NCBI GenBank assembly: GCA_963777315.1
Contig: CAVZQC010000002.1
Coordinates: 544,001 to 608,000, forward strand
Direction: 5' to 3'
From: Vulcanimicrobiota bacterium
Lineage (GTDB): Bacteria > Vulcanimicrobiota > Vulcanimicrobiia > Vulcanimicrobiales > Vulcanimicrobiaceae
DNA: 64,000 bases
Part shown: positions 27,942 to 39,143 of the stretch, in pieces
Layout: each line of letters starts with the position of its first letter
Position numbering within the stretch: the first letter of the stretch is position 1
Position numbers and translations under genes: made by a program
The notes under the pieces: model-generated
What the model was told of the DNA's origin: nothing
Databases searched by the model: none
Seen by the model: the letters and a program-made list of their open reading frames with translations, nothing else

Positions 27942-29672
27942 ATGCTCGTCCGATCGCTCGCCGTAGCATGCTTGCTCGGACTCATTGGGACGACTTCGCC
28001 CGCTGTACCGGCTTGGCGTCAAGGCTCGCCGGCCGTCGCCGCGCACGCCATGGTCGCCGCCGAGCAGCATTACGCCACGCGCGCCGGCGTCGCGGTTTTG
28101 CAGCGCGGCGGCAATGCGGTGGATGCGGCCGTGGCGACGGCTTACGCGCTCGCCGTCGTCGATCCGTGTTGCGGCAACATCGGGGGCGGAGGGTTCATGC
28201 TCGTGCGCATGCACGACGGGCGCGAGCGCTTCATCGATTTTCGCGAAGAAGCGCCGCTGCGCGCACGCCCCGACATGTATTTGGACAAAGCCGGCAACGT
28301 GATCGCGCACGCCAGCACGAAGGGATATCTTGCAGTCGGCGTTCCCGGAACCGTCATGGGGTTGGAGCGCGCGCGAGAAGAATTCGGCACGCAGCCGCGC
28401 GCGGCGCTCATGGCGCCCGCGATCGCTCTGGCGCAGAACGGTTGGATACTGCAGCCGGGCGATGCTGCAGTCTTTCAAGGCGCGGCAAGCCAAGGAGCCG
28501 GCGGCGCCTATACGTTCGCAAATCAGCCCAACGTGCGCGCAATTTTCCTGAAAAACGGACGCTTGCCGCGCGCCGGCGACCGCCTGCGCCAGCCCGAGCT
28601 CGCGGCAACGCTGCGCGCTATCGCTAAAGACGGAGCCAAAGCATTTTACGAAGGGCCGATAGCGGCCGCAATCGTTCGCGCCGCTCACGAGCACGGCGGC
28701 ATGCTCGCGCCCGACGACTTCACGCATTATCGCGTGCGCGAGCGCACTCCGGTGCACTGCGCGTATCGTGGTTACGTCGTCGTGTCGGCGCCCCCGCCCA
28801 GTTCAGGCGGCGTAACGCTGTGCGAAACGCTCAACATCGTGTCGGCGTATCCGCTGCGATCCTGGGGCTGGCACTCCGCGCAAAGCGCGCACTACACGAT
28901 CGAAGCCGAGCGCCGCGCATATGCCGATCGCAACACGTATTTAGGAGATCCGGCCTTCGTCCCCAATCCGGTGGCGCAATTGCTTTCCGGCCGGTACGCC
29001 GATATGCTGCGCGCGTCGATTCGGACCAGCGAGGCGACCCCGTCCGCGCAGGTGCGTCCGGGTCTCGGCCCGATTGCGCACGAAAACGACGACACCACGC
29101 ATTTTTCGATCGTGGACGCGCAAGGCAACGCCGTCGCCCTGACGTTCACGATCAACGATTGGTTCGGCGCGGGCGTCATCGCCGCAAACACCGGATTTTT
29201 TCTCAACGATGAAATGGACGACTTCACGAGCAAACCCGGGGTGGCCAACATGTTCGGTTTGGTGCAGGGCGTGCGCAACGACATCCGGCCCGGCAAACGG
29301 CCGCTGTCGTCGATGGCGCCGACGATTCTCACCAAAGACGGAAAGGTGTTCATGGTTACCGGAAGCCCGGGCGGAGCGCGCATCATCACCGTCGTGCTCT
29401 CGACGATTCAAAACGTTCTCGACTACGGGATGAACGTTCAGCAGGCCGTAAACGCGCCGCGAATTCACATGCAATGGCTGCCGGACCGGCTGCAATACGA
29501 ACCGGGCGCACTGAGCGATTCGGCGATAAAGCGGCTCGAGTCGATGGGCTACTCGCTCGAGGAGATTGCGTCGTGGGGTTCCGCGCAAGCCGTGGTCGTG
29601 GATGCGCGCACCCACGAACGCTACGGGGGAACGGATCGCCGCGGCCCGTCGGGATTGGCCGCGGGCTACTAG
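27942..29672 (+). CDS. ggt: Gamma-glutamyltransferase
   Basis: Signal peptide; GGNAVDAA, IDFREEAP, PPPSSGG, DTTHFSIVD, NDEMDDF, PLSSMAP, GSPGG. Confidence 0.96.
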   Translation: MLVRSLAVACLLGLIGTTSPAVPAWRQGSPAVAAHAMVAAEQHYATRAGVAVLQRGGNAVDAAVATAYALAVVDPCCGNIGGGGFMLVRMHDGRERFIDFREEAPLRARPDMYLDKAGNVIAHASTKGYLAVGVPGTVMGLERAREEFGTQPRAALMAPAIALAQNGWILQPGDAAVFQGAASQGAGGAYTFANQPNVRAIFLKNGRLPRAGDRLRQPELAATLRAIAKDGAKAFYEGPIAAAIVRAAHEHGGMLAPDDFTHYRVRERTPVHCAYRGYVVVSAPPPSSGGVTLCETLNIVSAYPLRSWGWHSAQSAHYTIEAERRAYADRNTYLGDPAFVPNPVAQLLSGRYADMLRASIRTSEATPSAQVRPGLGPIAHENDDTTHFSIVDAQGNAVALTFTINDWFGAGVIAANTGFFLNDEMDDFTSKPGVANMFGLVQGVRNDIRPGKRPLSSMAPTILTKDGKVFMVTGSPGGARIITVVLSTIQNVLDYGMNVQQAVNAPRIHMQWLPDRLQYEPGALSDSAIKRLESMGYSLEEIASWGSAQAVVVDARTHERYGGTDRRGPSGLAAGY

Positions 29673-31477
29673 CGCTGCTGCAGGCGTAGGCCGAACTCGA
29701 TGCTGCGCCGCCCGAGCCGGCGCTCCGTAGCGGCAAACCAGCGCACGCCGTCATCCAGCGGCGCGCTTATCGATGCGTCCACGTGCGGATCGGGCCGGTA
29801 ATCGATGAGATCGTTGCGCCAAATTGCGTCGGCGCGCAAGCCTCGCGGACTTTCGTACGTCACCCATACGCTGGCCGGCGTAGCGGGAACGGGCGCAGCG
29901 CCGAAACGCTGCAGATCGGCGTACGGGCGCGTGGTATCGTCGAAATGCATCGTCCACGCTCGCAGCGACACGCTGGGTGCGATTTGCCAAGCCAGTGACG
30001 CTCCGACGGCAGCGACGTCGCCTTCGTCCAAATCCGAAACGTGCGCCTTCAGCCCCGTAACGGATGCGCGAAGCCTGTGCCGATCGGTGAATTCCAAAGT
30101 CGCACTGCGCTGCGAATAGCGGTCGTACGCCAGTGCGTACTCGTCCGCCTCAGACGCGTACGCTTCCAGCAGCGAGGGCAAGCGAAACGATTCGCTGACG
30201 CCGGCGGACAGATTCCACTGCGGCGAAACGCCGTACGAAACCCAGGCCGAAGGCGTCGCCATGCGCGCGCTCAGCGGCGTGGAAACCCCAAGCGTTCCTC
30301 CCGAGTACGCGGCCTCAAACGCGCCGATGCCGGCGCTCCACGCGAACCGATCGCCGTGGTACTGCGCGCCGGCATCCACATGCGTTTCCAATGCGGTGCC
30401 TGCGATGCGAGGCTGCGTACCGGTCGTATCGTAATACCCCGACGAAAACCGGGCGCTCAGATCGGCGAAAGCCGATATCGGGCCATTCGAACTCACGCCC
30501 GTCGTCAGCGTCGTATCGCTCCAGCCGCCGGAAGCGCCGAACGCATGCAATGCCGCCCCATACGCGGACCGGTCCGCAGTGAGATCGGCGTATGCATGCG
30601 TCGCGCTCGCGCGATCCCAGTGAACCCGCAACGCGCTCGTGCTGCCCGCAAAGGTCTGGTCTGCAAAGGACAGATCGCGATCGCGCGCCGCGATTGCCGT
30701 TGCGCTGAACGTATCCGCTCCGTCGACGGTATCTGCGGCCACAACGGCGCGCGCGCGCGAATCCAAATCGCCGGCCGAATCGGCAAGCGAGTACGACGCG
30801 CGCGATCCGGCGCGGCCGAAAACAACGGTCTGCTGCGTTCCGGCAAGTGCAGCACCCGCGCCACCCGCCTGCGGCGTGGTTTGCACGAAGAATGTGCCGG
30901 CGCCGGCGAGATCGCCATATCGAAACGCCTGCGAAGGATCGCCCGGCTGCGCACTCCACGCGCCGAATTCCGGCAACTGCCGCAGCGGCGTTATGCCGGC
31001 TGCGAAATCGTACGGCGGAATGCCGTCGGCCGCCGGCAGGCCGCCCAATCCTAAGAGGCCGTAGAGCGCGAGGCGCGGTCCGGGAAGCACGTTCGAACTG
31101 TCGTCGAGCACGACGAAGGGCGTCAGCGCCAGCACGGATTCGACGTGCGCGTAGGGTAAAGCGGCGAGATCGCGCGGCGACGGAGCCTGCGAAACCAGCG
31201 CGTGATAGCGTTCGACTATGGCAGCGACGGTACCGTCGGCTGCAACGGCCGCTTGGGTGGGCCGGCAGTACGCGCAGGTGATGCGAACCTGACGCGCTTG
31301 CGCCGGCAAAGCAAAGGTGCCGTCCGGGCCGGTGGTCGTCCGTGCGGCGCCGGCGCGTACCGTCGCTGCTGCTATCGGTTCCCCGAACTGGTCGCGAACG
31401 GCTCCGGCGACGAGCGGCGCTGGCGCGGCGCCGCCGAGCGCGGCGGCCAACCACAAGAGCGCGAGCCGGTTTTTCAC
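29669..31477 (-). CDS. TonB-dependent receptor-like outer membrane protein with N-terminal carboxypeptidase-regulatory-like domain
   Basis: Signal peptide; GAVRDQFGEPIAAATV...TGPDGTF; plug-like DGIPPYD and FRYGDLAGAGTF; SESFRLPSL; C-terminal GRRSIEFGLRL. Confidence 0.65.
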   Translation of the reverse strand: MKNRLALLWLAAALGGAAPAPLVAGAVRDQFGEPIAAATVRAGAARTTTGPDGTFALPAQARQVRITCAYCRPTQAAVAADGTVAAIVERYHALVSQAPSPRDLAALPYAHVESVLALTPFVVLDDSSNVLPGPRLALYGLLGLGGLPAADGIPPYDFAAGITPLRQLPEFGAWSAQPGDPSQAFRYGDLAGAGTFFVQTTPQAGGAGAALAGTQQTVVFGRAGSRASYSLADSAGDLDSRARAVVAADTVDGADTFSATAIAARDRDLSFADQTFAGSTSALRVHWDRASATHAYADLTADRSAYGAALHAFGASGGWSDTTLTTGVSSNGPISAFADLSARFSSGYYDTTGTQPRIAGTALETHVDAGAQYHGDRFAWSAGIGAFEAAYSGGTLGVSTPLSARMATPSAWVSYGVSPQWNLSAGVSESFRLPSLLEAYASEADEYALAYDRYSQRSATLEFTDRHRLRASVTGLKAHVSDLDEGDVAAVGASLAWQIAPSVSLRAWTMHFDDTTRPYADLQRFGAAPVPATPASVWVTYESPRGLRADAIWRNDLIDYRPDPHVDASISAPLDDGVRWFAATERRLGRRSIEFGLRLQQR

Positions 31478-31503
31478 GGATTCTTCACAGATTCGGCTAT
31501 ACT
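31473..31503 (+). promoter_or_regulatory. 11-bp tandem direct repeat plus -10 box (OmpR-family site, leaderless promoter)
   Basis: TTCACGGATTC/TTCACAGATTC at 31473-31494; TATACT at 31498-31503, 7 nt before ATG 31511. Confidence 0.6.
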
Positions 31504-31510
31504 GGAAGTA

Positions 31511-31768
31511 ATGTCAAGGCGCCCCGTCCGTTCGTGGTTTTACGCGGTGCTGGCCGGGGCGCTCGTGCTCGCCGGCGCAGCGGGTTTCGCGGGGGCGGCT
31601 TCCGTGGAGTCGATGCTCGAGGGCTCGCTCCAGGCCTCGGGCGCTCCCTCGCTGCTGGGCCCAATTACCGAAGCCGGCCGCACGGGATGGGCGTGCAAAC
31701 CCGAGCAGGCCGCCGCTGCGGCCTCGGCTCGCGCAGCCGAATTGCCTTCTGCCGACGATACGCACTGA
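31511..31768 (+). CDS. Small secreted or membrane-anchored hypothetical protein
   Basis: MSRRPVRSWFYAVLAGALVLAGAAGFAGAA signal-like N-terminus; stop abuts the TPR gene ATG. Confidence 0.6.
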   Translation: MSRRPVRSWFYAVLAGALVLAGAAGFAGAASVESMLEGSLQASGAPSLLGPITEAGRTGWACKPEQAAAAASARAAELPSADDTH

Positions 31769-32587
31769 ATGCGGGCAGACGTACCGGCGCTCGCACTGTG
31801 TTTGCTCGCGGCGGGGAATGCAGCAGCCCCCGCACAGGATTATCCGACGGCCGTCCCGGCGCCGCAAACGACGTCGATCCCACAATTGCACGCCATCGCG
31901 CGTTCGCGCGAAGTGCACGAACGGTTTGCGCTGGGATTAGCGGCCGAGCAGCGCGGCGATTGGGCGCAAGGCGCGTCGGAATTCGAACGCATCGTGCAGC
32001 TTCATCCGGCTGAACCGCAGTATTCGACGGCGCATTACGATCTCGCAATCGCCTATGCCAACCTCAAACGGCTCGACGACTCCGCGCGCGAATTCGGAGC
32101 TGCAATCCAAGGCGATCCGGGCTTTTTGGCAGCGATGGCCAACCTGATTGCCGTCGATATTGCGCGCGGCAAGCTGGGGCAAGCGCGCCGCACGGCGGAT
32201 CTTTTCGTCGCCGCCGCGCCCGACTCCGCACGCGCGCTCTATTCGCGCGGCCTGGTGGCACTGCGCACCGGTGATTTTGCGGTCGCGCAGCGCGATTTCT
32301 CGCAGCTGCTGCGCAACGATCCGCAATACGCGCTCGCGCACTACAACTTGGGCATCGCGCAGACCAAACTCGGGGATTACGGCTCGGCGCAGCGCGAGCT
32401 GAGCATCGCACTGGATTTGGCGCCCGGATACGCTCGCGCGCGCTTTGCGCTGGGGACGGTGCTGCTGCGCGAAGGAAAACGCGCGCAGGCTCGCCAGGCA
32501 TTCGATCGCGTCGTTCGCGATGCGAACGGGGATCCGGCACTTGCGAATCTCGCGCTTGCCATGCGCGACGCAATTCACGCGCCCTAA
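31769..32587 (+). CDS. Secreted tetratricopeptide repeat protein
   Basis: Signal-like N-terminus; AHYDLAIAY, ALYSRGLV, AHYNLGIA, ARFALGTV repeats. Confidence 0.85.
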   Translation: MRADVPALALCLLAAGNAAAPAQDYPTAVPAPQTTSIPQLHAIARSREVHERFALGLAAEQRGDWAQGASEFERIVQLHPAEPQYSTAHYDLAIAYANLKRLDDSAREFGAAIQGDPGFLAAMANLIAVDIARGKLGQARRTADLFVAAAPDSARALYSRGLVALRTGDFAVAQRDFSQLLRNDPQYALAHYNLGIAQTKLGDYGSAQRELSIALDLAPGYARARFALGTVLLREGKRAQARQAFDRVVRDANGDPALANLALAMRDAIHAP

Positions 32588-32588
32588 C

Positions 32589-32621
32589 TTTCAGTCTTTT
32601 TTCACGACTGTTCCATACGCT
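32589..32621 (+). promoter_or_regulatory. 11-bp-period direct repeat plus -10 box upstream of the cupredoxin-SCO-cytochrome operon
   Basis: TTTCA at 32589 and 32600; TACGCT at 32616-32621; strong AGGAGG RBS before GTG 32650. Confidence 0.5.
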
Positions 32622-32649
32622 CTCCTCAACATACGTTAGGAGGGACATC

Positions 32650-33246
32650 GTGAACATACAGTACGCAGCTCTGCTTTTTGCCGGCATCGCATCGCTGAGC
32701 GCCTGCGGCGCAGGCGGAGGCGGCGGCGTGAATCCGCCGCCGAATTCCAACCCGGGCGGCAACGTACCGCCGCCTACGGTGGGTGCGCAGACGATCGGTA
32801 TCGCGCTGCCCGACGGAAACATCGGAAGCGTCGACACTGCGCCCTACGGCCGCGTGGGCGGATACACGCAATCGGTCTACTCGCAGGTGCTGGCCTTCGC
32901 TCCGGGCACGACGATCACGCTCAAAAATCTGTCGTCCACCACGCCGCACACGCTCAACGTGCTCGGTACGAGCGGATTCCCCACCAATCCCACGCTTTCA
33001 ACCGCCGCTTCCGGCGGCACGGCGCTCGCGGCCGGATTTCAAAGCGGCTCGATCGCACCGGGGGCAACGATGAGCGTCACGCTGTCGACGCCGGGCACCT
33101 ATTACATCGGGTGCGCGTATCATTTCAACGACGCGCTCAGCATGCGCGACGTGCTGCTCGTGAGTTCGAGCGCGACGCCGGGACCGCAAGCAACGCCCCA
33201 GCCTTCAGGCGGCGGCAGCGGCGGTTGCGTGGGGCCGTACTGCTAA
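32650..33246 (+). CDS. Lipoprotein with cupredoxin (type-1 copper) domain
   Basis: Lipobox LSAC; PHTLNV and PGTYYIGCAYHFNDALSM (H...C-x2-H-x6-M). Confidence 0.85.
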   Translation: MNIQYAALLFAGIASLSACGAGGGGGVNPPPNSNPGGNVPPPTVGAQTIGIALPDGNIGSVDTAPYGRVGGYTQSVYSQVLAFAPGTTITLKNLSSTTPHTLNVLGTSGFPTNPTLSTAASGGTALAAGFQSGSIAPGATMSVTLSTPGTYYIGCAYHFNDALSMRDVLLVSSSATPGPQATPQPSGGGSGGCVGPYC

Positions 33247-33803
33247 TGGGTTACTGCAAAGCGAGTGCGGCGATGCTGCTGGCGGCTGTTTTCGCACTCG
33301 CTCCTGCGGCTTGCTCAGCCGCTCCGGTTCACTTGGTCGATCAAACGGGGCACACTTTCACGTTTGCATCCCTGCGCGGCGAGCCGCTGATCGTTACGTT
33401 CGTTGCCGCCCACTGCACGGATGCATGCCCGCTGATCGACGCGCAGTTTTCGCAGGCCCAGCGGCTGTTCGCGCGGGCGCACCTTGCGGTGCGGCTGCTC
33501 ACGATCACGCTGGATCCCGAACACGATCCGCCCGCAGTCATGCGCGAACTCGCTCGCAGGTTCGGCGCGGACGCGCACCGCTGGCTGGTTGCGAGCGGAA
33601 GCGTGCGCGACGTCCACAATATCATGACCGCGTTCGGCGTGCGAGCCCAGCGCGGACGCGACGGTTATGCGGACGTCCATACGACGTTCGTGTACGTCTT
33701 CGATAAGCGCGGCGCGCTGCGCACGACGATCTTGGCTTCGACGGTATTGGGAACGCAGCTCGCGCGCGACGTTCGCACGCAGTGGCCGGTACTGGGACGA
33801 TGA
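33246..33803 (+). CDS. SCO family copper chaperone
   Basis: LVDQTG, HCTDACP (CxxxC), ITLDPEHD, DVHTT conserved His; TAATG coupling. Confidence 0.9.
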   Translation: MGYCKASAAMLLAAVFALAPAACSAAPVHLVDQTGHTFTFASLRGEPLIVTFVAAHCTDACPLIDAQFSQAQRLFARAHLAVRLLTITLDPEHDPPAVMRELARRFGADAHRWLVASGSVRDVHNIMTAFGVRAQRGRDGYADVHTTFVYVFDKRGALRTTILASTVLGTQLARDVRTQWPVLGR

Positions 33804-34231
33804 AAGCGCTCGCGCCGCTGCTTCTCATGGTGCTGGCCGCCTGCACGCCGGGCGGAATCGCGCCCCCGGCAGGCGGTCAGGCCGTCGGCGCCGTGACGAC
33901 TATCGACGTCAACCTCACGCTGCACCCCGACGGCTACGCGCCCGACACGGTCAACGTTCCGGTCGGGAGCAGCATTCGTTTTTTCAATAGCGACGGTTTC
34001 GCGCATACGGCTACGCTGATTGCCGGCGCGACGACGTTCCCGAACGGCTCGCCGTTCGACGCGTCGGCGCAGACGCGCGCCGGCAGCGCGATTGCCGCGC
34101 CTTGGAGTTCGGGAACGCTGCCGTCCCAAAGCGCGTCGCAGATCATCGTCGCCGATACGCCGGGCACGTATTTCTTCGGATGCTTTTTCCACTACGGGGC
34201 ACCCATGAGGGGGAAGATCGTTGTTCGCTAA
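33800..34231 (+). CDS. Lipoprotein with plastocyanin-like cupredoxin domain
   Basis: Lipobox LAAC; NSDGFAHTAT and PGTYFFGCFFHYGAPMRG (H...C-x2-H-x4-M). Confidence 0.87.
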   Translation: MKALAPLLLMVLAACTPGGIAPPAGGQAVGAVTTIDVNLTLHPDGYAPDTVNVPVGSSIRFFNSDGFAHTATLIAGATTFPNGSPFDASAQTRAGSAIAAPWSSGTLPSQSASQIIVADTPGTYFFGCFFHYGAPMRGKIVVR

Positions 34232-34235
34232 ATGC

Positions 34236-35354
34236 ATGCGCGCCGTCGCGCCCGTTCTCATGAGCGCGTTCGCGTTATCGCAAACCTGCGGCAGTGCGCA
34301 GGCGATACCGCTTTTTGCCCAGCGCTATCATCTGCAGTGCGGAGCCTGTCACAGCGTGCTTCCCGAACTCAACTCGTTCGGCCAATACTTTCGCCGGCAC
34401 GGTTACCGCCTGGCGCTTGCCAAACACGGCACCACCGGCGTGGCGCTGCGGTACCAAATGGAGTACGAACGCGATCCCGCGCCCGGAAGCCGGCGTTTTT
34501 CACCCGGCGGGGTGCTGCTTTCGAATGCGGACATCGGCGCGGTAACCGCGTTCGTGCATTACAATCTGGGAGCGGGCGGAGGGCCGTCCGGGCTGTTCTT
34601 GGGATACCTGAACACGTACGACGCGCACACGCAATCGTCGTATCGTGCCGGATTATTCGAGCTGCCGCTCGCGCAATCACCCGGACAGCGTCTGGACGAT
34701 CTCGCGCCGTACGGATATTACGGCACGCACGTCGGCTTGAACGATCTGTCGCTGGCTTCGCCGCGCTGGGGCCTGCAAATCGAACGAACCGTCGGGTCGG
34801 CCCGCTTGGATTTGACCGTTTCGACCGGCGAGTTCAAAGGCGCAGCATACGGCGGAAAGCCGATCGACACCGGGGAAACGACCTCGGCCGATAGTCCGGA
34901 AACGGGGCTGTTCGCCGCCGTGCCGCTTGCCGACGGTACGGAGCTCGGCGGTGAAGCCATCGTGGGTTCGCGGCGCATCGTTCCGACGGGCAGGTCGGCA
35001 TTCGCCGACGCGTACCGGCGCACCGGACTGTTCGCGCACGCGACTATGCGCAAGCTGGACGTTCAAGCCGAACAATGGTGGGGCTTCGACGCGAATGCCG
35101 ACGGTTTCGGTTCGGGTATCGCCAGCAGCGGCGGCTATCTGCGCTTGAAGTACTATCCCAGCGCGCATTTCTATCTCGGCGTGCGGTACGATGCTGCGGC
35201 CAACCCCTTTTTGCAGCGCGACTTCGTGTACTACTTCGCATTTCACGTCACGCCCCACGCACGATTGCTTTTCCAAGAGGTGCAGACGGTGGGCGGCCGC
35301 GCAAGTCTGGGCGGAGCCCTAACGGTGGGAGCGCCCTGGCCGCCGAACGTGTAG
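34236..35354 (+). CDS. Cyc2-like monoheme c-type cytochrome fused to a putative beta-barrel porin
   Basis: Signal peptide ending AQA, then IPLFAQRYHLQCGACHSVLPELNSFGQYFRRHGY; remainder Gly/aromatic-rich amphipathic strands. Confidence 0.7.
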   Translation: MRAVAPVLMSAFALSQTCGSAQAIPLFAQRYHLQCGACHSVLPELNSFGQYFRRHGYRLALAKHGTTGVALRYQMEYERDPAPGSRRFSPGGVLLSNADIGAVTAFVHYNLGAGGGPSGLFLGYLNTYDAHTQSSYRAGLFELPLAQSPGQRLDDLAPYGYYGTHVGLNDLSLASPRWGLQIERTVGSARLDLTVSTGEFKGAAYGGKPIDTGETTSADSPETGLFAAVPLADGTELGGEAIVGSRRIVPTGRSAFADAYRRTGLFAHATMRKLDVQAEQWWGFDANADGFGSGIASSGGYLRLKYYPSAHFYLGVRYDAAANPFLQRDFVYYFAFHVTPHARLLFQEVQTVGGRASLGGALTVGAPWPPNV

Positions 35355-35373
35355 ACCGGCAAGGGAGACGCTC

Positions 35374-36042
35374 ATGCGCATACTGATCGTCGAGGACAAC
35401 GTCAGCGTTGCCGCTGCGGTGCGGACGATGCTCGAACGCCGCAAGTATGCCGTGGACGTGGCCGGCGACGGCGACGAGGCGCTGGCGCAGCTGGTGCAGC
35501 GAACGTATGACGCGGCGATCGTCGACGTCATGCTTCCCGGACGCGACGGATTCGAGGTCGCGTTTGCCGCGCGTTCGCAGGGCGTGCAGACGCCGCTGCT
35601 CATGCTCACCGCTCGGGACGCCGTCGAGGATCGCGTGCGCGGCCTGGACTGCGGTGCCGACGACTACTTGGTCAAGCCGTTCGTCGAAGAAGAGCTGGCG
35701 GCGCGGTTGCGCGCCCTCGTGCGCCGCGCGGATCGGCCGGTTCAAGACGTTCTGGAAGCCGGCACGATCGCCATCGACGCCAGCGCGCGCCAGGCCACTT
35801 GCATGGGCAAACCGCTGCGATTGGGCGCGACCGAGTTTCGCATGCTGGAATTCTTCGTGCGCAATGCCGGCATCGCGCTCAGCCGCGATCTGCTGCTGGA
35901 ACGACTGTGGGAGTACGATTTCGAGGGTTCCAGCAATATCGTCGACGTGTACGTCAGTCAGCTGCGCCGCAAGCTCAAACGCGCGGGCGGCGGCAATCCC
36001 ATCGCCACGGTATGGGGTATGGGATACAAATTCGTTTCGTGA
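35374..36042 (+). CDS. OmpR/PhoB-family response regulator (CusR/MprA-like)
   Basis: ILIVEDN, DVMLPG, LTARD, GADDYLVKPF, NIVDVYVSQLRRK, TVWGMGY. Confidence 0.95.
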   Translation: MRILIVEDNVSVAAAVRTMLERRKYAVDVAGDGDEALAQLVQRTYDAAIVDVMLPGRDGFEVAFAARSQGVQTPLLMLTARDAVEDRVRGLDCGADDYLVKPFVEEELAARLRALVRRADRPVQDVLEAGTIAIDASARQATCMGKPLRLGATEFRMLEFFVRNAGIALSRDLLLERLWEYDFEGSSNIVDVYVSQLRRKLKRAGGGNPIATVWGMGYKFVS

Positions 36043-36950
36043 CCGTCCGCCTCGCGCTGCGGTATTTGGCGATTTTCGCGCTCGTGCTTGCCGCGTTGAG
36101 TGCGGGCGCGTACGAATTTTTGGGACGCGAATACGCGACCTTGCTGCAGCCCGCGCTGGGCACGCCGGAAGGAATGCGCGCGTACGGAACGGCGATGCGC
36201 CGCATCGCACTGACGATCGTCGCATTCGACCTTCCCCTGCTCGCGCTGTTCGGCGCAGCGTCATGGCTGCTCGCGCGCGCTTCGCTGCTGCCGCTGCTGC
36301 AGGCGCGCGAACGCGAACGCGCGTTTGCCGTGGACGCCGCTCATGCGTTGCGCTCTCCGCTGGCGACGATTGCTTCGGTCGCGCAGGCTTCGCGCGACGG
36401 TCAGCCCGCGGCGATCTCGGGCGCATTCGATACGATTGCGCGCGCGGCGCTGGACGCATCGGCGGTCGTAGGAGATCTGCTCACGCTCGCGCGCAGTGCG
36501 CGGCCGGAACGCCTGCTTCGCGAGCCGCTCGACTTGAGCGCCGTCGTCGCCGACACGTCCAAAGAGTTCGTTCCGCTGGCGCGCGAGCTGCGCATCGAGA
36601 TCGAGCGCGATCTGACCGGCGCGGTCGTCGATGCGGACGAACGGCGGCTGCGCGAACTCACGCGCAATTTGCTCGACAACGCTCTGCGCCACGCGCGCGG
36701 ACGCGTCGCCGTCACTGCGCGTCCGGCGGGGCGGTGGGTGGAACTGATCGTCGGCAACGACGGCGAAGCGATCGCTCCGGAAAATCGCGAACGGATCTTT
36801 CAACGCTTTTTCAGCGCGAACGGGCAGGGCGGAAGCGGTTTGGGGCTTGCCATCGTGCGATGGATCGCGCAGGCGCACGGCGGATCGGCGTTCGTGCGCG
36901 ACGGCCCGGCAGGCGGTCCCGAGTTCGTCGTTCGTTTCCCGCCGGCATGA
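36039..36950 (+). CDS. Sensor histidine kinase (two TMs, short loop)
   Basis: GTGA overlap; DAAHALRSPL H-box, NLLDNALRH, IFQRFF, GSGLGLAI. Confidence 0.9.
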   Translation: MTVRLALRYLAIFALVLAALSAGAYEFLGREYATLLQPALGTPEGMRAYGTAMRRIALTIVAFDLPLLALFGAASWLLARASLLPLLQARERERAFAVDAAHALRSPLATIASVAQASRDGQPAAISGAFDTIARAALDASAVVGDLLTLARSARPERLLREPLDLSAVVADTSKEFVPLARELRIEIERDLTGAVVDADERRLRELTRNLLDNALRHARGRVAVTARPAGRWVELIVGNDGEAIAPENRERIFQRFFSANGQGGSGLGLAIVRWIAQAHGGSAFVRDGPAGGPEFVVRFPPA

Positions 36951-37853: not shown

Positions 37854-38853
37854 TGCGAACGTTCTCAACGGCGTGGGCGCAATGCACTTGTCCGCATTGG
37901 ACGATCCCAAAACCATCAAGCAGGTTCCTACGCGCAATGGCTTCGGCGAAGGGCTCATCGAAGCCGGGAAGCGCAACGCCAACGTCATCGGAATCTGCGC
38001 GGACCTTTCCGAGTCGACGCGCATGCTGGGCTTCAGGGATGCGTTTCCCACCCGGTACATCGAGATCGGCGTTTCGGAACAGCTGCTGGTGGCGATGGCC
38101 GGCGGTTTGGCGGCGATGGGGAAAATTCCATGGATCGCCAGCTACGCGATGTTCAATCCCGGCCGATCGTGGGAGCAAGTGCGTACGATCATGGCGCTCA
38201 ACGAAACCAACGTGAAGATCGCCGGCGCGCACGCGGGCGTCTCCGTCGGTCCCGACGGCGCCACGCATCAGGCGATCGAAGACATAGCCATCATGCGCGT
38301 CCTGCCGCACATGACCGTCGTGGTTCCGTGCGATTCCACCCAAACGAAAAAAGCGACCCTGGCGCTGAGCGAGATGGATGGGCCCGCGTACCTGCGGTTC
38401 GCGCGCGAGAAATCGCCCGTCATCACGACCGAGGACACTCCGTTCGAGATCGGCAAAGCGCAAACGTTCCGCGAGGGCGGCGACGTGGCGATCGTCGCCT
38501 GCGGCATACTGCTGTACAACGCGCTCATCGCCGCGCGCGAACTGGCCAAAGCCGGCATCGAGTGCATGGTCGTCAACAATCACACGATCAAGCCGATGGG
38601 CGAGCCGGCGATCGTGCAAGCCGCGCAGCGCTGCGGCGCCGTGGTGACGGTCGAAGAGCATCAGGTGCACGGCGGCATGGGTTCGCGCGTGGCCGAGATA
38701 CTCGCGCAGCGCCATCCGGTGCCCATCGAGTTCGTCGGCGTGAACGATCGGTTCGGCCAATCCGGCGATCCGGCCGAACTGATCGAGTACTACGGCATGG
38801 GAAGCAGCGCGATCGCGGCCGCGGTGCGGCGCGCGCTAAAGCGCAAGAGCTAA
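37846..38853 (+). CDS. Transketolase C-terminal subunit
   Basis: ADLSEST, IGVSEQ, GPDGATHQAIED, TIKP, VTVEEH. Confidence 0.94.
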   Translation: MANANVLNGVGAMHLSALDDPKTIKQVPTRNGFGEGLIEAGKRNANVIGICADLSESTRMLGFRDAFPTRYIEIGVSEQLLVAMAGGLAAMGKIPWIASYAMFNPGRSWEQVRTIMALNETNVKIAGAHAGVSVGPDGATHQAIEDIAIMRVLPHMTVVVPCDSTQTKKATLALSEMDGPAYLRFAREKSPVITTEDTPFEIGKAQTFREGGDVAIVACGILLYNALIAARELAKAGIECMVVNNHTIKPMGEPAIVQAAQRCGAVVTVEEHQVHGGMGSRVAEILAQRHPVPIEFVGVNDRFGQSGDPAELIEYYGMGSSAIAAAVRRALKRKS

Positions 38854-39143
38854 ACCGGAACCGCGACGCGTAGGTTGGCGCTCTCGATGAGCGCCAAATC
38901 GGCGAATTCCGCCACCAAATGCGCGACCTCGCCGGCAACGCCGTCCTGGGCGGTGCGGCTCTGCAGCGCGAGCCTTTGGGCGATCTGCGCGCAGGAACGC
39001 GTTCCGTCGCAGTGCTCGAGTACGGCTGCGGCGCGATGGTTCAAGATATGCACGTAATCGCGCTGCTTGTCGTGCACGATGACCTTGTGCGGCAGCTTGA
39101 TGATTTCCAGACTGCGTTGACGGCGGGGAAGCGAGAGGACCAT
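38850..39143 (-). CDS. PqqD family / RiPP recognition element protein
   Basis: VHILNHRAAAVLEHCDGTRSCAQIAQRL...EVAHLVAEFADLALI pattern; AGGAG RBS. Confidence 0.8.
   Translation of the reverse strand: MVLSLPRRQRSLEIIKLPHKVIVHDKQRDYVHILNHRAAAVLEHCDGTRSCAQIAQRLALQSRTAQDGVAGEVAHLVAEFADLALIESANLRVAVPV

Follow-up and report, generated by a model that had tools for sequence, protein, structure and literature searches.

A Cyc2-like Cytochrome-Porin Encoded with Blue-Copper Lipoproteins in Vulcanimicrobiota: A Candidate Operon for Electron Uptake from External Metal

Introduction

We describe an operon in which a porin carrying a Cyc2-like heme domain is encoded directly downstream of a blue-copper lipoprotein. 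The operon lies in a stretch of 64,000 nucleotides from a Vulcanimicrobiota bacterium (assembly GCA_963777315.1, contig CAVZQC010000002.1, positions 544,001 to 608,000 of the forward strand), here called the window. Eight plus-strand genes are packed into window positions 31511–36950, as follows: a small open reading frame (ORF), a gene for a tetratricopeptide-repeat (TPR) protein, the cupredoxin gene cupA, a SCO gene, a second cupredoxin gene, cupB, the porin-cytochrome gene, and the genes for a response regulator and a sensor kinase. We propose that this is a self-regulated operon with the heme porin and a blue-copper lipoprotein as its core, through which electrons from an external reduced metal (Fe(II) most probably) would reach the respiratory chain. 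We give this proposed function an even chance. The operon itself is real and conserved, and it was correctly seen in a sequence-only reading of positions 32650–36950: ORF, Pfam, and NCBIfam analyses find the six genes of that segment where the reading had put them, and its description of them is accurate. The module is larger than that reading held, as it also includes the small ORF, the TPR gene, the gene of a putative TonB-dependent transporter, and a candidate operator.

Among genetic markers for microbial iron oxidation, Cyc2 is the principal one, and the exit of its electron from the outer membrane is unsettled outside Acidithiobacillus. Cyc2-like proteins are reported in Eremiobacterota metagenome-assembled genomes (MAGs) from acid mine drainage (PMC8357290), and Baltobacteraceae MAGs from Cu/Ni mine tailings are given as predicted iron oxidisers by FeGenie (PMC13594681). 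Cupredoxins are not mentioned in either of these texts. The sequence-only reading knew of no description of the arrangement. Cyc2 in Eremiobacterota is thus in print, but we found no description of the operon in the literature on operons of Cyc2 with cupredoxin or Sco genes or on Eremiobacterota copper proteins, a body of literature in which most subscription journals fall outside coverage. The operon architecture, with its clean regulatory handle, appears to be undescribed.

The Cyc2-like Cytochrome-Porin

Keffer et al. (2021, PMC8406198) characterise Cyc2 proteins as having at least 365 residues in total, including a 16-strand porin, with a signal peptide and a single CXXCH that is preceded by AXPXFAR[Q/K][T/Y] and followed by PXL. 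The porin-cytochrome gene of the window (34236–35354, plus strand) encodes a protein of 372 amino acid residues from ATG 34236, or 377 from TTG 34221. Its N-terminal order is a hydrophobic leader ending in AQA, read from the alignment as a signal peptide, then AIPLFAQRY, three residues, CGACH, three residues, and PEL. The residues that follow AQA, IPLFAQRYHLQCGACHSVLPELNSFGQYFRRHGY, match exactly those quoted in the sequence-only reading. All 24 aligned homologues keep the single CxxCH, made up of C40, C43, and H44, as that reading required, and P48-E49-L50 is invariant in the same alignment.

For comparison, a Cyc2 reference set was assembled by scanning metagenome contigs for the strict motif P.FAR[QK][TY]-x3-CxxCH-x3-PxL, which gave 120 loci from 2 of the 64 parts of the collection. 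Among these loci, 117 were in-frame, 55 had a complete C-terminus, and the 51 that were full-length and at least 365 residues long were used to build a hidden Markov model (HMM). The spacing of three residues between motif and Cys, as well as the position of PxL, are equal in the porin and in the 117 strict-motif matches. The 51-protein HMM matches only two of the 18,678 ORFs of at least 80 residues in the window's genome, namely the porin and a paralogue encoded on another contig (see Genome Context). The match to the porin has an E value of 4e-16 (hmmsearch) and covers HMM positions 9–69 only, that is, protein residues 10–70. When the porin profile is aligned with the strict-motif profile by hhalign, the result is 99.6%, with E 5.9e-24 over 311 columns. 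Judged by these comparisons, the 45-residue heme domain is a true homologue of that of Cyc2, set in the same architecture.

By sequence, no part of the porin, its barrel included, matches an entry of Pfam, NCBIfam, or PDB. A structure predicted with AlphaFold2 from the 24-row alignment (pLDDT, or predicted local distance difference test, 70.4; predicted template-modelling score 0.70) has 16 strands between residues 74 and 373, so the barrel supposed in the sequence-only reading is also what the model predicts. Foldseek matches the model to the 16-strand porins Omp36, OmpC, OmpF, and OmpM1 at E ~1e-8 and TM ~0.5. The nearest named protein-atlas cluster has Porin_O_P in 12% of its members, which serves as a lead only. 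The mean column identity of the barrel is 70% in the 24-row alignment, unusually high for a porin.

Cyc2 proteins such as those of Acidithiobacillus ferrooxidans (Cyc2), Mariprofundus ferrooxydans (Cyc2PV-1), Leptospirillum (Cyt572), and Ghiorsea bivora (Cyc2TAG1_1) share with the porin the signal peptide, the single CxxCH in a short N-terminal domain, A-x-P-x-F-A...Y ending three residues before the Cys, PxL after it, and a fused, predicted 16-strand porin. The length of the window's porin is near the small end of the Cyc2 range, where the G. bivora protein, given as 389 residues (PMC13692758), is also found. In contrast to Cyc2, it has AIPLFAQRY, its barrel is unlike by sequence and unusually conserved, and it is shorter than the strict-motif set, whose median is 479 residues. 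Because the motif is only a variant and no sequence similarity is detectable in the barrel, the porin is best described as a divergent Cyc2-like branch, of a kind that strict motif screens would discard.

The barrel contains invariant stretches, for example ELPLxQSPxxRxDDL. Four His residues, H69, H113, H136, and H316, are also invariant and could include a distal heme ligand. In four genomes (G169, G383, G115, and G055), the porin match contains one in-frame stop, a TGA in three genomes of one genus and a TAG in the remaining one. Such a stop may be that of the upstream gene, lying inside an overlapping leader region.

The Core Pair and Its Conservation

The porin family is large. Among 8,000 candidates scored, 653 clusters match at E ≤1e-3, and 205 relatives are found in species-representative genomes; the names of the homologues assign the window's organism to Baltobacteraceae, phylum Eremiobacterota/Vulcanimicrobiota. 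The porin profile was also searched against 401 genomes of the phylum (the window's own included, and 13 of them unpublished and entering the present counts alone) at E ≤1e-5, with counts that include weaker, paralogue-type matches. A match is found in 317 of the 401 genomes. In the window's family, 274 of 296 genomes have one, as do all members of two related families (5/5 and 30/30), whereas elsewhere in the phylum the matches are weak and confined to 7 of 69 genomes.

Gene order was followed in the 80 best loci, which have 54–75% porin identity; the genes were sought by tblastn, and several loci end at contig edges. CupB is found in 79 loci, SCO in 74, the regulator in 73, the kinase in 70, the 602-residue divergent neighbor in 67, and CupA in 53. 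The TPR, SCO, cupB, porin, regulator, and kinase genes occur together in 63 of the 80, and all eight genes in 43. The cupB gene is directly upstream of the porin gene in 79 of the 80 loci, with an extrapolated gap within about 100 nt in 76 of the 79. The housekeeping genes downstream rarely recur, with transketolase present in 10 of 80 loci and S15 in 4 of 80. Frozen synteny was rejected as the cause of the gene order, as the downstream neighbors differ (upstream sequence was covered to 5 kb). Since the cluster recurs in 80 loci while its downstream neighbors do not, it is a module whose arrangement lies far beyond chance, and the conserved gene order expected by the sequence-only reading is borne out.

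Deeper relatives identify what is essential to the arrangement. CupB is upstream of the porin in all five that were found. An order-level relative has the order regulator-kinase-TPR-cupB-porin, without SCO, and four class-level relatives, at 36–39% identity, keep only cupB-porin, amid peptidase, ABC-transporter, and other unrelated genes. Because only that pair remains in the distant relatives, we take cupB-porin to be the core. The cassette does hold together in related loci, but it was one family that added SCO, cupA, and the two-component system to the pair.

The layout in the window is tight. CupA and SCO overlap by 1 nt, SCO and cupB by 4 nt (ATGA), and regulator and kinase by GTGA, while gaps of 4 nt and 19 nt separate cupB from the porin and the porin from the regulator, respectively. 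Upstream, the TGA of the small ORF directly abuts the ATG of the TPR gene (TGAATG), and a gap of 62 nt containing an AGGAGG site lies between the TPR gene and cupA.

A few loci depart from this picture. Three of them, L070, L079, and L087, have about 450 nt between cupB and porin, compared with a few nt elsewhere, a stretch that may contain an additional small gene. A second, distant Cyc2-like gene (24–42% identity) is found 3–6 kb from the main one in 6 of the 80 loci (L010, L011, L023, L025, L074, and L076). Finally, the Eremiobacterota-type gene of L031, L055, and L081 (57–64% identity) is on contigs assigned to MAGs of Verrucomicrobiia, Candidatus Acidoferrum, and Acidiferrales, which would reflect mis-binning or transfer.

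The Copper Proteins

CupB (33800–34231, plus strand; about 143 residues from ATG 33800) is a type-1-copper cupredoxin lipoprotein with the lipobox LAAC. It matches Pfam Copper-bind (PF00127) at 25.4 bits, against a cut-off of 21.2, and Cupredoxin_1 at E 5.8e-6. The ligands H75, C134, H137, and M142 are invariant among 41 aligned sequences. C..H....M is present in 77 of 79 loci, the remaining two having a longer loop; a lipobox-like site is found in 70 of the 79, with Thr after the Cys in 68. Among solved structures, those nearest to the CupB profile are electron-transfer cupredoxins: plastocyanin (7.6e-7), pseudoazurin, amicyanin, and auracyanin B (E 3.2e-4).

CupA (32650–33246, plus strand; 198 residues; lipobox LSAC) is the more variable member. 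Its Copper-bind match lies below the cut-off (E 0.079, 13.8 bits), and it aligns with the cupB-type genes of distant loci at E 1e-10. The Cys, His, and Met of its CAYH-x6-M are kept in 44 of 44 aligned homologues, and 44 of 46 have a lipobox-like site. The upstream His, identified by eye, is in NLSxxxHTLNV. Inspection of the translations of CupA and CupB revealed no His/Met-rich copper-capture regions in either protein; their linkers are Gly/Pro-rich. The C-terminus of CupA (33190–33246) is a Gly/Ser-rich tail with two Cys residues, GGCVGPYC, and a similar GGCTGIYC is found in locus L019. The two Cys could possibly form a disulfide or an additional metal site.

The SCO gene (33246–33803, plus strand; 185 residues) encodes a SCO1/SenC-type copper chaperone or thiol-disulfide oxidoreductase (PF02630, E 2.5e-21, 76.5 bits), whose nearest solved structure is Bradyrhizobium Blr1131 (E 1.5e-16). 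It carries CTDAC, with CxxxC kept in 73 of 74 loci, and a downstream His in ADVHTTF was read from the sequence. The window's genome has three SCO genes, that of the operon included; hence, the operon's SCO is an extra, local copy and is taken to be dedicated to the operon.

The Two-Component System and a Candidate Operator

The response regulator (35374–36042, plus strand; 222 residues) belongs to the OmpR/PhoB family, with matches to Response_reg (E 1.2e-27) and Trans_reg_C (E 1.2e-24). Its best NCBIfam model is RppA, at 207 bits and below the cut-off of 250. The sensor histidine kinase (36039–36950, plus strand; 303 residues) contains HisKA and HATPase_c. Its topology, read from sequence, has two membrane helices flanking a loop of about 35 residues, and no large periplasmic sensor domain.

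The divergent transporter gene and the small ORF are separated by 35 bp between their starts, a region which holds a candidate operator and promoter (31473–31503, plus strand). The order is TTCACGGATTC TTCACAGATTC GGC TATACT, then 7 nt and the ATG of the small ORF, that is, two 11-bp direct repeats (31473–31494) followed by GGC and a TATACT −10 box. The first repeat overlaps the start codon of the transporter gene. The pattern of two 11-bp repeats and a −10 box fits 60 of 68 regions, and clear variants are present in the other 8, the window's among them. There is no match beyond those 60 in the 1.55 Mb of loci, and a relaxed form of the pattern occurs once in the 2.83-Mb genome. A related TTCAy-N6-TTCAG is found upstream of cupB in three of the four class-level loci, where about 1.4 chance matches are expected by an estimate for all the sequence searched. 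An exact repeat, TTCAC-N6-TTCAC, was also considered and rejected, as it fits only 2 of 67 loci; the aligned regions give the consensus TTCAy-N6-yTyAG.

OmpR/PhoB regulators usually bind tandem repeats one helical turn apart. Since the repeats have just this form, the operon's own regulator probably binds them.

Genome Context

BamA is present in the window's genome; hence, the cell is diderm. A cultured relative is described as having a typical Gram-negative envelope (PMC9758169). The sequence-only reading had noted that the operon has no cytochrome or oxidase gene of its own besides the porin, and an ORF and family scan of 29669–36950 agrees, revealing no cytochrome c or oxidase genes there. 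The genes it had suggested looking for are found elsewhere: one cytochrome c assembly gene lies 11 kb beyond the window, and the genome encodes heme-copper oxidases of the caa3, aa3 (with a plain CuA subunit), and cbb3 types, along with two orphan COX1 genes.

The paralogue matched by the 51-protein HMM is encoded on contig C5 (G000 contig C5:223903-229981; locus L217:5903-11981, minus strand). It is a protein of 592 residues with AIPVFANGQGVSCQTCH, a barrel, a C-terminal cytochrome c, and a YtkA-like domain. Its HMM match (E 2.9e-23) spans positions 13–384, so through the barrel it is closer to the strict-motif Cyc2 proteins than the window's porin is. Its gene is followed by those of a multicopper oxidase, a 200-residue protein without assignment, and a TonB-dependent receptor. 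Two of the SCO genes are found at a distance of about 8 kb.

A Proposed Electron Path and Its Alternatives

We propose the following path. The heme domain would sit at the periplasmic mouth of the barrel, as has been proposed for Cyc2, and Fe(II) or another reduced metal would be oxidised in the pore. From the porin, the electron would pass to CupB, and then perhaps to CupA, both tethered to a membrane. The cupredoxins would deliver it to a heme-copper oxidase encoded elsewhere, most obviously the aa3-type enzyme with the plain CuA subunit. The copper sites would be loaded or kept reduced by SCO, metal may be provided by the divergent TonB-dependent transporter, and the small protein and the TPR protein would be accessories. 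The OmpR-type regulator would bind the 11-bp direct repeats, switching on both transcription units from one operator. The Cyc2 homologues tested so far are reported to oxidise Fe(II) in every case (PMC8406198, PMC13692758, PMC13647500).

Several observations weigh against this proposal. The strict Cyc2 motif fails at two positions, where QR replaces R[Q/K], and this AIPLFAQRY is invariant in 24 of 24 homologues; accordingly, of the Cyc2 pattern that the sequence-only reading saw at the N-terminus, the heme-domain homology, the spacing, and PxL stand, but the published motif is present as a variant only. The reference set was itself chosen by motif from metagenome contigs and does not consist of proven iron oxidases. 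When the cytochrome domains are removed, the barrels alone give a weak hhalign result (33% at E 4.6e-4, against E 0.22 for the reversed control). Confidence in the porin model is lowest at the heme domain, with pLDDT 43–54. A cupB-like ORF occurs within 1.7 kb of just 4 of the 120 strict-motif loci, many of which are truncated, and all four matches are weak, so the pairing with a cupredoxin is not a general trait of Cyc2. Searches of the window's genome, which is 89.9% complete, gave no match to the RuBisCO large subunit, to reaction-centre proteins, or to LolA. With neither RuBisCO nor a reaction centre found, we considered and discarded iron oxidation of a phototrophic or autotrophic kind in this genome, and the path would provide a heterotroph with supplementary energy or metal detoxification instead of supporting autotrophic growth. 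Finally, the setting is rich in copper-related features, which also fits a role in copper handling.

If copper were the substrate, the module would import, oxidise, or buffer it: copper would enter through the TonB-dependent transporter, Cu(I) would be oxidised or Cu(II) reduced by the porin at the outer membrane, SCO and the cupredoxins would bind copper or hand it on, and the two-component system would sense it. The SCO gene inside the operon is consistent with this, as are the surroundings of the C5 paralogue (the multicopper oxidase, the YtkA-like domain, the TonB-dependent receptor, and two SCO genes) and the regulator's 182.6 bits on the heavy-metal cztR_silR_copR model. That regulator, however, falls under every NCBIfam cut-off. 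The transporter fold does match OprC, among many TonB-dependent transporters, but by Foldseek it is closer to transporters of cobalamin, pyrroloquinoline quinone, and siderophores, and neither the transporter nor SCO belongs to the conserved core pair. CusS and CopS kinases carry a large periplasmic domain, which the operon's kinase lacks, and we know of no role in copper traffic for the heme of a Cyc2-type domain. A cupredoxin-like protein, CopI, acts in copper tolerance (PMC13308877), although CupA and CupB have classic His-Cys-His-Met electron-transfer sites and, on inspection, lack the His/Met-rich stretches of CopI. We consider copper handling possible but unlikely. The porin and cupredoxin might instead signal external iron or the redox state to the kinase, which has almost no sensor domain of its own; the small secreted protein and the TPR protein would then relay the signal. 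The short loop of the kinase, the two-component genes that stay with the pair in the rearranged order-level locus L218, and the single operator in the genome could all be understood in this way. Yet the pair has no adjacent regulator genes in any of the four class-level genomes, a regulator gene inside the operon amounts to no more than ordinary autoregulation, and a barrel so highly conserved along its whole length suggests catalysis or transport; sensing is, in our judgement, improbable.

The direction of flow could also be reversed, so that in acidic soil poor in oxygen, respiratory electrons would leave the cell for Fe(III), Cu(II), or humic acceptors. In principle, electron-transfer proteins work in both directions, and many Eremiobacterota come from acid soils and peat, where Fe(III) is a strong oxidant according to the potentials given in PMC8406198. 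Against this reading, the operon has no quinol-oxidising module. Type-1 copper sites have potentials of about +200 to +700 mV, too high for reducing Fe(III) minerals near neutral pH. The cultured relative is reported not to grow anaerobically on any acceptor tested (PMC9758169). Outward flow thus appears very improbable.

To return to the inward path from an external reduced metal, its extension to the phylum may be stated as follows. Most members of a globally abundant soil phylum would carry a copper-wired electron-uptake line, running from porin to lipid-anchored cupredoxin to oxidase with no periplasmic cytochrome, and heterotrophs would gain additional energy by oxidising Fe(II) or other reduced metals, with a dedicated regulator and a single genomic operator. 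It is tempting to propose this, but we do so tentatively and hold it to be rather doubtful. If it is true, soil iron oxidation is far more widespread than marker counts based on autotrophs suggest. Throughout a class of a common soil phylum, one that has a cultivable relative, a divergent Cyc2-like protein is firmly paired with a blue-copper lipoprotein, and a clear candidate operator is at hand. This makes several questions testable: whether cupredoxins can replace cytochromes as partners of Cyc2, whether non-autotrophs use Fe(II) as a supplementary fuel, and whether strict PXFAR[Q/K][T/Y] screens miss whole branches of Cyc2.

Comparison with Known Systems

The rus operon of A. ferrooxidans has the order cyc2-cyc1-orf-coxBACD-rus. 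Like the operon of the window, it encodes an outer-membrane cytochrome of the Cyc2 type together with a type-1 copper protein. Whereas a rus-type operon brings together Cyc2, a periplasmic cytochrome c, and an aa3 oxidase, the operon of the window has neither a c4-type cytochrome nor an oxidase. Its cupredoxins are lipoproteins of the plastocyanin/amicyanin kind, in contrast to the soluble rusticyanin, and it has in addition SCO, the TPR protein, the small protein, its own two-component system, and the divergent, putative TonB-dependent transporter.

Chloroflexus auracyanins are membrane-tethered blue-copper carriers that link alternative complex III to an oxidase or a reaction centre. CupA and CupB resemble them as membrane-anchored type-1 copper carriers that replace soluble cytochromes; unlike them, auracyanins have no outer-membrane porin partner, and no reaction centre was found in the window's genome. 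The CopRS/CopI and Pco systems share with the operon a copper theme and a two-component system beside one or more periplasmic cupredoxin-like proteins. The operon differs from them in having no His/Met-rich capture regions and no multicopper oxidase, a heme porin instead of PcoB, and a kinase without a large sensor domain.

Neighboring Genes

The gene divergent from the operon (29669–31477, minus strand) encodes an outer-membrane protein of 602 residues. An N-terminal CarboxypepD_reg (E 1.2e-5) is its sole Pfam match; at E 0.1 it is matched by neither Plug nor TonB_dep_Rec. Its AlphaFold model (pLDDT 85.6) has the predicted fold of a 22-strand barrel with a plug, and Foldseek aligns it with PqqU, BtuB, FauA, YncD, FoxA, FepA, and OprC at E 1e-16 to 1e-12 and TM 0.6–0.68. 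On the strength of the model, the protein is a TonB-dependent transporter. BLASTP comparison with the TonB-dependent receptor near the C5 paralogue gave no match (E 0.17).

The first gene of the operon (31511–31768, plus strand) encodes a small secreted or membrane protein of 85 residues with a hydrophobic N-terminus and no Pfam family match. A small ORF of 81–89 residues follows the promoter in 64 of 67 loci, with the motif LLGPITEAGRxGWACKPEQAA kept. Next is the gene of the periplasmic TPR-repeat protein (31769–32587, plus strand; 272 residues), which matches TPR_16 (E 6.5e-24) and other TPR families. The TPR protein is found in 70 of the 80 loci and is retained in L218.

The rest of the 64-kb window consists of housekeeping genes. 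A PqqD-like ORF of 96 residues (38850–39140, minus strand; PF05402, E 9.1e-6) stands alone after the transketolase genes.

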